This document shows, piece by piece, positions 15,881 through 56,486 of a stretch of 64,000 nucleotides of DNA. The notes beneath the pieces are model-generated. The model made no database searches, was not told where the DNA came from, and was given only the letters and a program-made list of their open reading frames with translations. This DNA comes from Octopus vulgaris (Eukaryota): positions 38,254,001 to 38,318,000 of the forward strand of contig OX597818.1 in NCBI GenBank assembly GCA_951406725.2. Direction: 5' to 3'. Made by a program: the position numbers and the translations under genes. Position 1 is the first letter of the stretch. Each line of letters opens with the position of its first letter.

Positions 15881-16240
15881 GAATTACACCATGGAAGGTG
15901 TTTATAAGCCATTTAAAAAAACATACAAAAACTGTTAGATTCACTTCAACATTTAAATTTAATTTGTGTCAAGATATTTTCGTTGCTTTGAAACCGCGAC
16001 CTGTTCATTAACAAAATTTCGTTCTGCATCTCAGTTTTTGTCAGTGAACGAGTTGCGGTTTCAAAGCGACGAAAATATTTTGACACAAATTAAATTTCAA
16101 TGTTGAAGTGAATATAACGGTTTTTGTGTGGGGCGGGGGGGGTTAAATGGGTTATAAATACCTTCTGCGCTGCAATTGTTTTCTTTTTTCAGCACACGAT
16201 TTCAGATCAAGTCACTTGCTATGCAAGTACATCTCCTTAA
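15881..16240. mobile_element. Fold-back hairpin element with HHR-like cores and one-sided tail
   Basis: Arms 15881-16016 / 16036-16178; tail 16179-16240 (ttcagcacacga..ttgc). Confidence 0.8.
16036..16089 (+). ncRNA. Variant hammerhead motif with G3-C8 core (mirror copy 15963-16016 minus)
   Basis: Helix I ugUCA/UGAca, GUGAAC 16044-16049, helix II GUUGC/GCGAC, GAAA 16071-16074, AAUAUU palindromic helix III. Confidence 0.6.
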
Positions 16241-16256
16241 TATATAAATATATAGC

Positions 16257-16628
16257 ATGGTACTTTATCGGTTACAACGACGAGGGTTCCGGTTGATCCG
16301 ATCAACGGAACAGCCTGCTCGTGAAATTAATGTGCAAGTGGTTGAACACTCCACAGACACGTGTAGCCTTAACGTAGCTTTCGGGGAGATTCAGCGTGAC
16401 ACAGAGTGTGACAAGGCTGACCCTTTGAAATACAGGTACAACAGAAACGGGAAGAAAGAGTTGTGGTGAAAAAGAGTACAGTAGGGTTCACCACCACCCC
16501 TTGCCGGAGCCTCGAGGGAATTTAGGTGTTTTCGCTCTATAAACACTCACAACGCCCAGTCTACGAATCGAAACCGCGATCCTACGACCGCGAGTCCGCT
16601 ACCCCAACCACTGGGCCATTGCGCCTCC
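16257..16628 (-). mobile_element. tRNA-derived SINE (family C head, different tail)
   Basis: Reverse complement starts ggaggcgcaatggcccagtggttggggtagcggactcgc, as at 3736. Confidence 0.85.
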
Positions 16629-17169
16629 ACACACACACGTATGTGTGTGTGTATGTATGTATGTATGTATGTATGTATGTATGTATGTATGTATGTATGT
16701 ATGTATGTATGTATGTATGTATGTATGTAATGTTTTAGCTGCCAATTCTGTACAAGACATTGTAGATCTCTAGCTGGGCTAAAAAGTCACATTCGATCAC
16801 AGCACCAATAACAGTTAAGCTTCGTGCAATGGCCATATTCGATAACGAGGAGGCAGCCATCATGTAATGTATATGTGTGTGTATATATGTGTATATATAT
16901 ATATATATATATATAGGTTATAAAATGAGATAGGGGTTGAAAATTCAACCCACCATGGGATAATATATATCCAATATACTGCTAGATAGGTACCCAACAA
17001 AAATTAATACATAGATGTTAGAAATTGTCAAGCAATCAGTTCATCTATTGTATTAAATGGGTAAGGGTAATAATATTACCGTTTGTAGTATATATATATA
17101 TATATATATATATATATATATATATATATATATATATATATACATATGTGTGTGTAGAGAGAGAGAGAG

Positions 17170-17381
17170 GGGGGGGTAAAAAGTTTCTGGCTTTAAGGGT
17201 GTCGCGAAAGGCCAGGCTGGAGGCCCTAACTTCCGAGTTCTTTTACAGGGCTTAGAAAAACTGAAGGCCACTGCAATATGTGTGTGAATCTGAGGGGAGA
17301 ATATGTTGACTAAAATCATTATTAACTGATCCTCCTGTGTTTTTTTTTACCCAAAACTATGAACTTTTCAGCGCCCTTCGT
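17170..17381. mobile_element. Tc1/mariner-derived MITE (copies at 44175-44387 and 44660-45042)
   Basis: TIR-like gagggg..aaaagtt / aacttttcagc.ccctc-TA; shared internal gggcttagaaaaactgaagg. Confidence 0.65.
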
Positions 17382-17764
17382 ATATATTCACTCACGCAAA
17401 CACACATACGCACACAGACACACACACAAACTTCAAAAGTGTTTGTGTACATATATGTAATCACTACTTTTGTGCGTGCGTGTATGTATTTACACATACT
17501 GTATAATAGTTTAAATTATACATGTTATCGGCGGAGAGAAAGTAACCACATGACATTCTCATATACTCGTGACTATGCTAAGTGTCATAGAACAAACAAA
17601 CTAGATTTCTTTATCTTAAGGCTTATACTTAACTCTATTTTTGGCTTTATCAAGCCGTCTCTTGGTCATAAGTCTTTGTTAACTTGGATGGACGCATATT
17701 TTTGTCGCTGAATAGATATATAACATTTAAAAGAGATCTATGAGAAATTTGGTATAGATAAGAT

Positions 17765-52804: not shown

Positions 52805-54999
52805 CGTAGGCATAGGAGTGGCTGTGTGGTAAGTAGCTTACTTACGAACCACATGGTTCTGAGTTCAGTCCCACTGCGTGGCACCTTGGGCAAGTGTCTT
52901 CTACTATAGCCTCGGGCCGACCAAAGCCTTGTGAGTGGATTTCGTAGACGGAAACTGAAAGTCCGTTGCATATATTATATATATATATATATATATATAT
53001 ATATATATATATATATATATATATATATATATATATATATATATATATATATATATATATATATATATATATATATATATATATATATATATATATATAT
53101 ATATATATATATATATATATATATATATATATATATATATATATATATCCCGGGTATATATTATATATATATATTTATATATATATATATATATATATAT
53201 ATTTATATATATATTTATATATTTATATATATATATATATATATATATATATATATATATATATATATATATATATATTATATATATATATATATATATA
53301 TATATATATATATTATATATATATATATATATATATATATATATATATATTTATATTTAATTTATATATATATTTTTTTTTTTTTTTTTTTTTTTTTTTT
53401 TTTTTTTTTTTTTTTTTTTTTTTTTTTTTTTTTTTTTTTTTTTTTTTTTTTTTTTTTTTTTTTTTTTTTTTTTTTTTTTTTTTTTTTTTTTTTTTTTTTT
53501 TTTTTTTTTTTTTTTTTTTTTTTTTTTTTTTTTTTTTTTTTTTTTTTTTTTTTTTTTTTTTTTTTTTTTTTTTTTTTTTTTTTTTTTTTTTTTTTTTTTT
53601 TATATTAATATATATAATATATATATAAAAAAAAAAAAAAAAAAAAAAAAAAAAAAAAAAAAAAAAAAAAAAAAAAAAAAAAAAAAAAAAAATATATATA
53701 TTAATATATTTATTTATTTAATATATAATTTATATATATATATATATATATATTATATATATATATATATATATATATATTATTATATATATATATATAA
53801 AATAATATATATAATATATATTATATATTTATTATATATATATATATATATATATATATATATATATTATATATATATATATTATATATATATATATATA
53901 TATAATTATATATATTAATATATAAATATATATATATATATATATATATATTTATATATATATTATATATATTATTTAATATATAAAAAAAAAAAAAAAA
54001 AAAAAATATTATATATATATATATATATATAAAAAAAAATATACTATATACTATATTTATATATATATTATATATATATTATATATATATATATATATAT
54101 ATAAATTTAATAATTAATATATATAATTAATACTATAAATATATATATATATCCTATATATATATATATATATATTTATATATATATTATATATATATAT
54201 ATATATATATATATATATATATATATATATATATATATATATATATATATATATATATATATATATATATATATATATATATATATATATATATATATAT
54301 ATATATATATATATATATATATATATATATATATATATATATATATATATATATATATATATATATATATATATATATATATATATATATATATATATAT
54401 ATATATATATATATATATATATATATATATATATATATATATATATATATATATATATATATATATATATATATATATATATATATATATATATATATAT
54501 ATATATATATATATATATATATATATATATATATATATATATATATATATATATATATATATATATATATATATATATATATATATATATATATATATAT
54601 ATATATATATATATATATATATATATATATATATATATATATATATATATATATATATATATATATTATATATATATATATATATATATATATTATATAT
54701 ATTTATATATATATATATATATATATATATATATATATATATATATATATATATATATATATGTGTATGTATGTGTGTATATGTTTGTGTGTCTGTGTTT
54801 GTCTCCCCAACATCACTTGACAACCAATGCTGGTGTGTTTATGTCCCCGTAATCTAGCGGTTCGGCAAAAGAGACTGATAAAATAAGTACTAGGCTTACA
54901 AAGAATAAGTCCTGGGATCAATTTGCTCAACTAAAGGTGGTGCTCCAGCATGGCCACAGTCAAATGACTGAAACAAGCAAAAGAGTAAAGAGTAAGAGT
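52805..54999 (+). mobile_element. SINE family A with hugely expanded internal (TA)n / poly-T / poly-A
   Basis: Head 52805-52965, 3' half 54770-54999. Confidence 0.85.
52970..54762. repeat. (TA)n with long poly-T (53373-53601) and poly-A runs
   Basis: Direct inspection; possibly low-quality sequence. Confidence 0.95.
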
Positions 55000-55281
55000 A
55001 CACACATAAGGTCATTAGAATGAAGAGTAAAATAGCCTGGCAGCATTTGTTTCAGTACTCAGTGTTTTGAGTTCAAATTCCACCAAGATCAACTTAACCT
55101 TTTATCTTTTGGAGCTTGATAAAGTTAAGTACCAGGTCCCGTGCAGTGGATTGGCACATGTATTAGAGTATTGGACTAGATAACATTTTATATTTGTACT
55201 AGATCTTTGCATTCGGAGTTCTTGTGTGCTAGACTTAATCTGTCATCTGGTTTATTACCACCACCTAATCATAAAGTGCCT

Positions 55282-55781
55282 TTAACCCTTTAGTGTTCAG
55301 ATTATTCTGTCAAATGTGATGTTTGTTTATTTAAAATGGTTTGAATTAATCCTGCATTATCTTGTAGTTTAGATATTTCAGTGATGTGATTTTTTTTTAG
55401 TTTTAGAACAGCATGGTAGGGCTGAGGTGAGAGGTGAGATCTGGTCAGTTTCAATGACTTCAGGAAACATTTTTTCACGCTGAGAGTTGCTGAAGCGTGG
55501 AACAAACTGCCGGCATCGGTTGTTAGTTGTCGGAGCACTGCATCCTTCAAAACCTCCATGCTTCCTGAGATTCGCCAACACTACACTTGATTTTCTCCCC
55601 TCCATACACACATAAGCATGTTCACTTTCCAGACATTTCTACATTACTGCATGTACTTTATATGCACTTTCTGACAAGTTGTGGTGCACCTGAGCACTGT
55701 ATACAATAATTTCATTATTATTTTATAAAACAGGCTAAATATTTTGGCCAGATATGGCCAGTTTGAATGCTAAAGGGTTAA
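55282..55781. mobile_element. piggyBac-like MITE interrupted by a CR1-like 3' end (55455-55722)
   Basis: ttaa-ccctttag..ctaaaggg-ttaa; insert translates FFTLRVAEAWNKLP; its 3' UTR also at 46835-47060 minus. Confidence 0.75.
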
Positions 55782-55925
55782 TGGAATTCACTTTGATATA
55801 TGGACTACATCAAAGGTTTGAGGATAAGGTCTTCCTTCTACCAGTCATGAAGGCTCTTGGTTTGAGGATGATATGCCAATAGGCATTTTTGCCTGGTGTG
55901 TTAACAGTTCTATCAGCTTACTGCC

Positions 55926-56486
55926 TTAACCCTTTAGCATTCAAACTTGCCATATCCAGCCAAAATATTTAACTTATTTTATGCCCAAAGTGGCCAGATC
56001 TGGCCTCTCACCTTAACCCTACAATGTCGTTCTAAAACTAAACAATCACATCATTGAAATCTCTAAGCTACAAGATAATACACGATTAATTCAGAAACAA
56101 TATAAACATTGGATTAGACAGAATAATATGAATACTAAATTCTGTTGTGTCTGGGGAGAGTCATTTTCTTTTTGTGCCTTATAATGTAACACACTCACCA
56201 GTAAAATTTCCACTTATTTCTTATTTTTATTTTCCTAAAATTTTTGTTGCGTCTTGCAACCTTTTCAATAGTCTTGACTCTTGAAAATGTTGCAAGACAC
56301 AACAAAAATTTTAGGAAAAATAAAAATAAGAAATAAGTGGAAATTTTACTGGTGAGTGAGTTACATTATAAGGCACAAAAAGAAAATGTCTTGCCCCAGA
56401 CACAACAGAATATGCTTCAACACATGAGCTCATATAAAGAATCTTGCAAACCAAATCCAAAAACAAAATGAATACTAAAGGGTTAA
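55926..56486. mobile_element. piggyBac-like MITE interrupted by a hairpin element (further copy 63509-63720)
   Basis: ttaa-ccctttagcattcaaac..gaatactaaaggg-ttaa. Confidence 0.75.
56140..56467. mobile_element. Fold-back hairpin element with U3-A8 HHR-like cores, tail and 12-bp TSD
   Basis: Arms 56140-56273 / 56276-56411; UUGAAAA-G-GUUGC-aagac-GCAAC-(A)AAA-AU-UU-uag; TSD atgaatactaaa at 56128-56139 and 56468-56479. Confidence 0.85.

Follow-up and report, generated by a model that had tools for sequence, protein, structure and literature searches.

Related Penelope-like element families of Octopus vulgaris carry hammerhead motifs with different Watson–Crick 3–8 core pairs

We analysed a window of 64,000 nt of the Octopus vulgaris genome (2.8 Gb), contig OX597818.1, positions 38,254,001–38,318,000, which contains several hairpin elements with hammerhead ribozyme motifs. 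The hairpins of three families, labelled A (core at 20292), B (16044) and C (56268 on the minus strand and 56281), carry minimal type I hammerhead motifs and represent the ends (pLTRs) of Penelope-like retroelements (PLEs) in inverted arrangement; a motif at 47856 is labelled family D. An earlier note on this DNA had proposed that these hairpins carry all three compensatory versions of the pair between core positions 3 and 8 (C3–G8, G3–C8 and U3–A8). All of the motifs that it listed are present, and the tail motif lies at 16188, 20457 and 56416. The motifs were parsed directly from the sequence, since the Rfam covariance models gave no hammerhead match in the window at E up to 1, and none at the gathering threshold in loci L301, L122, L066 and L307. 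Rfam also misses the C3–G8 motifs, so this miss is not caused by the 3–8 swap.

The family A fold-back insertion with its tail spans 19908–20505, and its arms (19908–20127 and 20233–20452) are 99% complementary. The plus-strand minimal hammerhead (20289–20328) reads CUGAUGC G GUCAC/GUGAC GAAA, with the core at 20292–20298, an extra G at 20299, helix II at 20300–20315, GAAA at 20316–20319, stem III AGAACU and a predicted cut at 20325/20326; it is a C3–G8 core with C at position 9. The mirror arm holds an identical sequence on the minus strand (20032–20071, core at 20068), and the PLE tail occupies 20457–20500 (+). The spacer between the arms (20119–20240) is 97% identical to 20557–20672, immediately 3′ of the insertion, with no other copy in the DNA searched; it is possibly target-site DNA captured on insertion. 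The family B fold-back (15877–16235) consists of two outward-pointing 5′-truncated PLE ends, with the tail on the right arm only (16188–16230, +). Its plus-strand minimal type I hammerhead (16039–16085) is G3–C8 and reads GUGAACG A GUUGC/GCGAC GAAA, with the core at 16044–16050, the extra nucleotide at 16051, stem I UGUCA/UGACA, helix II at 16052–16070, GAAA at 16071–16074, palindromic stem III AAUAUU and a predicted cut at 16080/16081. At position 9 and the extra position this arm has GA where the family has AG (G9 and extra A versus A9 and extra G). The mirror hammerhead on the minus strand (15967–16013, AUGAACA G at 16008) is decayed, with A3 and C16.1; its A3 is copy decay and not a fourth pair state.

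The family C fold-back with its tail spans 56139–56470, with arms that are 93% complementary. Its minus-strand hammerhead (56235–56271, core 56268–56262) reads UUGAAAA G GUUGC/GCAAC, a U3–A8 core with a loopless stem III AAUU, and the plus-strand mirror (56278–56315, UUGAAAA U at 56281) is also U3–A8, with one helix II pair broken. Both arms have AAAA where the family has GAAA, G12 having been lost at a CpG, so the copy is predicted to be dead. Thus, the window's C arms (A12) and B mirror arm (C16.1) depart from hammerhead requirements, and both the B and the C copy of the window, being decayed, are predicted to be inactive. Lastly, 47561–47986 (+) is the 3′ end of a PLE of family D, a distant lineage, and matches the region 3′ of the D open reading frame (ORF) in L066. 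Its minimal hammerhead (47853–47890, +; UUGAAAA at 47856) is U3–A8 with stem III ACCGGU and without an A/B/C-type tail. The extra A noted here is copy-specific, as family D is without an extra nucleotide.

A similarity search of the DNA with family A gave no return despite the abundance of the family, and genome-wide patterns were used in its place. The patterns for A, C and an older B subfamily left eight core letters free, and states were counted by eye in the first 100 listed matches; the pattern for a young B subfamily with an 8-nt loop fixed U4, G5 and A6 and left positions 3 and 8 free. Thousands of matches were returned, compared with 0–2 for the reversed control. Family A (3,881 matches) has C3–G8 in 97 of the 100 listed, U–G in two and A–G in one. 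Family C (2,075 matches, which have GAAA and so retain G12) has U3–A8 in 90 of those listed, C–A in seven, U–U in two and one non-homologous row. In older B (198 matches), the 100 listed comprise 75 G3–C8, nine G–U, eight G–G, five A–C, two G–A, one A–A and no C–G. Young B accounts for 95 of the first 100 listed matches of its pattern (2,666 in total) and is G3–C8 in 93 of the 95; all 29 of its arms in fetched loci are G3–C8, and over 60 nt their median number of differences is zero. Family D is U3–A8 in most of 35 arms.

The majorities therefore are C3–G8 in A, G3–C8 in B and U3–A8 in C and D, a Watson–Crick pair in every case, and the proposal that the three versions are fixed by family is borne out. 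They do not revert to CUGANGA, and a CUGANGA search misses B, C and D as expected, and also most of A. U4, G5, A6, G12, A13, A14, A15.1–U16.1 and H17 are all present in the family majorities. Position 9 is A in the majority of B, C and D and not of A, where 92 of the 100 listed matches have C, six have A and two have U; A9 persists as a minority, and the core of family A is not canonical. A further search with a loop of 10–14 found no new family (49 matches, 40 of them G3–C8). A second G3–C8 family may be represented by a lone motif at 3361–3410 (+) of L306, whose loop II differs and whose helix III is loopless, as in family C.

Inside a family, each position of an inserted copy decays on its own: changes at 3 and at 8 are independent of one another, as dead copies would be expected to show. 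Among 117 family B matches with non-G at position 3 (100 listed), the 16 C3 and 25 U3 copies all retain C8, and the 59 A3 copies have C8 in 51, A in four, G in two and U in two. In family C, all 100 matches with non-U at position 3 (90 C, 6 A and 4 G) were counted: A8 is kept in 98, and there is one C3–G8 and one C3–C8. Covariation is therefore readable between families only. The natural covariation that had been claimed exists between families, where both sides of the 3–8 pair change, and is missing within them, so that aligning the copies of one family, the check originally suggested, cannot reveal it. We also considered G3·G8 copies of B and C3·A8 copies of C as amplified intermediates and rejected this, since no subfamily formed. 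The G·G variants are scattered on a poorly resolved B tree, the mismatch is confined to one arm in 5/5 two-armed G·G insertions and in 7/8 two-armed loci containing C3, and in family C the 22 C3 arms and 36 U3 arms compared are not distinguished by any column. One family C copy, at 829 (+) of L309, has a full C3–G8 core, consistent with two chance changes. In older B (L152–L159 and L166), C8-to-G occurs in 8/100 copies, whereas three G columns together show a single G-to-C change among 300 (Fisher p 9e-5); this excess is arm-specific and an unexplained hotspot.

A reverse transcriptase (RT) ORF with a C-terminal GIY-YIG domain lies upstream of the pLTR in genome relatives of A–D, and not in the window copies. 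The family A motif lies ~570 nt behind a 654-aa RT plus GIY-YIG ORF in L151, in which RVT_1 (E 5e-4, below cut-off) and GIY-YIG are both weak. The young B motif lies ~1,040 nt after the stop of its ORF with the same spacer in two loci, L301 and L302; this ORF is 51% identical to that of A over 356 aa, and GIY-YIG in L301 scores 24.9 bits, above cut-off. These two loci overturn the view that B is non-autonomous, which its 77 arms with short 5′ flanks had suggested. In L188, an endonuclease region precedes the family C motif by 713 nt; its relative in L308, with the frame intact, shares 50% identity with A and 46% with B, the evidence for C covering the endonuclease region only. Family D follows a distant ORF (L066). 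With regard to the Neptune/Nematis clades, the linker CX2-5CxxC is seen in A, B and D and is degenerate in C. According to the available text of Craig 2021 (PMC8557442), Neptune/Nematis-type EN+ PLEs share the RT, this linker, the C-terminal GIY-YIG and the standard insertion form, an inverted 5′-truncated copy with an optional tail of 30–40 bp.

The tail motif occurs in 10/35 arms of A, 22/77 of B, 43/111 of C and 0/38 of D, at a steady distance from the hammerhead motif. Tail alignments among A, B and C score 50, 32 and 30, far above the shuffle means of 14–16 (0/300 shuffles as high), and the spacer from motif to tail does not align. Together with the shared helix II and ORFs that are 46–51% identical, these alignments uphold the homology of families A, B and C. 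In a lizard PLE, the tail marks reverse-transcription starts (PMC11167929, in the part available). L016 contains a tandem array of ~164-nt units, each with a family B tail. In a tree built from the C-terminal region, with 13 rows of which three are less than half filled, B and C group together (87/99, not starred), the C–G families A, M and N fall outside B+C, and D is separated with 100/100. Judged from these sequences, A/B/C and D are two distant PLE lineages. A derivation of D from C, suggested by similar GUCGC–AAAG letters, was rejected, as no alignment rises above shuffles and the ORF is distant.

To extend the comparison between families, 1.43 Mb of sequence (800 kb at arbitrary positions, the fetched loci and the window) was scanned with a descriptor that left positions 3 and 8 free. 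The 800 kb part gave 12 strict hits compared with one in shuffled DNA, and 10/12 have a Watson–Crick 3–8 pair. Survey seeds were extended by BLAST without the core; only two or three copies underlie each of families E, I, J and K. The majorities are C–G in E, F, F2, G and H and U–A in I and J, with K ambiguous; the sister families M, N and O of the A/B/C clade, with one to three copies each, are C–G. Single decayed copies with U–G or G–G (L305, L210 and L163) were left out of the family count. With A–D and the loci added after the survey included, 14/15 families have a Watson–Crick majority (nine C–G, four U–A and one G–C), and two more U–A motifs behind D-like ORFs (L232 and L250) were read by eye. 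Among ten representatives of the A/B/C clade, the 3–8 pair is CG in four, GC in four, UA in one and UG in one. That the apparent covariation is merely chance or copy-specific decay of unrelated repeats is highly improbable: there are only three states and perhaps two change events, and the window copies of B and C are indeed decayed; however, the pairs are fixed in thousands of copies, the ORFs are homologous, the tail is common to A, B and C, and there is no mismatched majority among the 14 resolved families. The decay part of this explanation is refuted by the genome-wide family majorities.

Stems I–III surround the core in the type I topology. When single copies are folded, B and C form stems I and II; for D only helix II is clear, and in A stem I is shifted. 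Stem III is palindromic in B, C and D and has an AA loop in A, and energy-based co-folding recovered the intermolecular helix III for D and not for A, B or C. In minimal PLE hammerheads, helix III is described as too short for the monomer, so two motifs pair and cut after position 17, at low rates unless helped (PMC4209133 and PMC6765202, in the parts available). The C3G/G8C double mutant partly rescues cleavage in the lizard PLE hammerhead (PMC11167929) and is the only core rescue in a full double-mutant scan (PMC9901934), as far as the accessible portions of these papers report. A G3–C8 pair is therefore chemically plausible, and we predict that the G3–C8 form likely still cuts RNA.

Our preferred explanation, which we regard as probable, is that the hairpins are truncated inverted ends of related PLE families, each fixed for a different Watson–Crick 3–8 pair, likely because ancestral active elements were selected to keep a dimer-cutting ribozyme. 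Each swap needs two changes via a broken intermediate, so different fixed Watson–Crick pairs are evidence of selection on the active fold, and from these double changes between families we infer selection for cleavage. In this mechanism, stem III, short and mostly palindromic, would bring two motifs together, and they would cut after position 17, perhaps assisted by the element's protein. Cutting would process a tandem or read-through transcript; the tail would be the starting point of reverse transcription, and the fold-back would arise from a second copy, inverted and 5′-truncated. Selection would act only on a few master elements, and the unpaired intermediate would have been crossed at least twice. 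We hold more tentatively, at somewhat less than an even chance, that a working G3–C8 hammerhead, undescribed from nature, serves an autonomous animal PLE family whose young copies number in the thousands, and that one clade passed through C–G, G–C and U–A while keeping catalysis.

Several observations weigh against this explanation or limit its support. First, the permutation probability is 1e-4 when the 14 families are treated as independent, and only 0.03 after collapse to five lineages. In the ten representatives, the 3–8 pair and helix II are paired in 60/60 cells and 0/500 shuffles reach the covariation score, although 4/10 representatives are B-like and this relatedness inflates the score. 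U4, G5, A6 and GAAA are invariant in all ten, an invariance that is partly built in, since several patterns fixed U4–G5–A6 and GAAA. The tree does not reject a shared U–A ancestor for C and D (approximately unbiased test, p 0.24); if C and D are placed together, two double changes suffice, so that there may have been as few as two independent ones. Second, there is no compensation inside families: in B, 0/16 C3 copies have G8, 0/25 U3 copies have A8 and 2/59 A3 copies have U8 (100 listed), and in C there is one C3–G8 of 100. Third, the youngest and most numerous family, A, amplified with A9C (92/100 listed; median 1.7% from the majority), and two high-copy families show A6U in most copies (F2) or U4C in many (F). 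Finally, the parts of the literature at hand report that PLE minimal hammerheads cut poorly in vitro (PMC4209133) and that hammerhead mutants are without effect on PLE insertion in vitro (PMC11167929). The core variants at 9, 6 and 4 thus run contrary to the claim of selection for cleavage made in the earlier note. For position 9, A9U is present in working natural ribozymes although it lowered the activity of an artificial construct by a factor of 20 or more (PMC10085705, as far as its available text goes), and C9 of family A could pair with G12.

These same core variants would fit an explanation in which the swaps were fixed by selection in distant ancestors and cleavage is no longer needed today, the motif being a relic carried by successful masters. 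The dispensability of cleavage in vitro (PMC11167929) and the success of Naiad PLEs without canonical hammerheads (PMC8557442), both from the accessible text, also agree with a relic. We consider this unlikely, as three B subfamilies of differing age (6.7% versus about 0–2% spread) changed loop II and flanks and retained the core and stems, a difference too small for significance alone. Less probable still, and indeed doubtful, is that the fold including the 3–8 pair was kept for a role other than cutting, such as RNA dimerisation or RT–endonuclease binding. Such a role would agree with the self-complementary stem III of B, C and D, with the tolerance of A9C in A, and with the lizard PLE motif, which is described as cutting only with its protein present (PMC11167929, available part). 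Catalysis by the hammerhead requires G12, G5, A6 and a non-G at 17. All of these are kept across families, which argues against a non-cutting role.

The families can be compared with the minimal type I hammerheads in PLE pLTRs described by Cervera and de la Peña in 2014 (PMC4209133). In the portion of that study available, the motifs share the site 3′ of the PLE ORF, the short palindromic helix III, the short helix I, the extra nucleotide between 9 and 10.1, G10.1–C11.1, opposite-strand pairs and U3–A8 families (Schistosoma). In contrast, its supplement text gives no G3–C8 among the Fig. S3 representatives and no A9C, its consensus for the extra nucleotide is H whereas 10/10 representatives here have G, and the three pair states occur here inside one related element group. 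The natural core variants of Perreault 2011 (PMC3088659) share natural U3–A8 covariation, the text to hand naming U3–A8 alone; five G3–C8 core strings were not found in its 11 text supplements, where gapped or picture alignments could hide them. U3–A8, the extra nucleotide and opposite-strand pairs are thus already published (PMC4209133 and PMC3088659). The engineered C3G/G8C forms (PAc from Anolis, PMC11167929, itself a PLE motif with a tail; scan, PMC9901934) have the same G3–C8 pair and partial activity, but are laboratory mutants and not natural high-copy families. Our literature search for a natural G3–C8 family gave engineered examples only, a weak negative as figure alignments and key hammerhead surveys lay outside it; it found no cephalopod PLE hammerheads and nothing relevant on A9C. 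The G3–C8 form therefore seems to be undescribed from animals, and, within the literature checked, the G3–C8 variant of a family that has an ORF of its own is new.

Given the poor cutting and the dispensability in vitro of PLE hammerheads, family B would offer an autonomous element whose natural G3–C8 core suits tests of single and double mutants, with A9C of family A as a natural contrast. Hammerhead descriptors should leave positions 3 and 8 free as a pair, as thousands of motifs here would otherwise be missed. If correct, the more tentative reading, of a clade that kept catalysis through all three pairs, would provide evolutionary confirmation of the tertiary core pair and point to a large class of genomic ribozymes that is invisible to CUGANGA searches. 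Four contig sets aligned to the B arm show no core-column differences, even where the window copy differs from its family, and are thus uninformative on the 3–8 pair in other organisms.

The window also contains three further minimal hammerheads of other repeat families, at 48125 (−), ~39971 (+) and 25655 (+), all of them C3–G8; most copies of the family represented at ~39971 carry A6U. Lastly, 2677–3762 (+) holds a PLE-like RT ORF fragment of another lineage, with relatives in L003 and L013.

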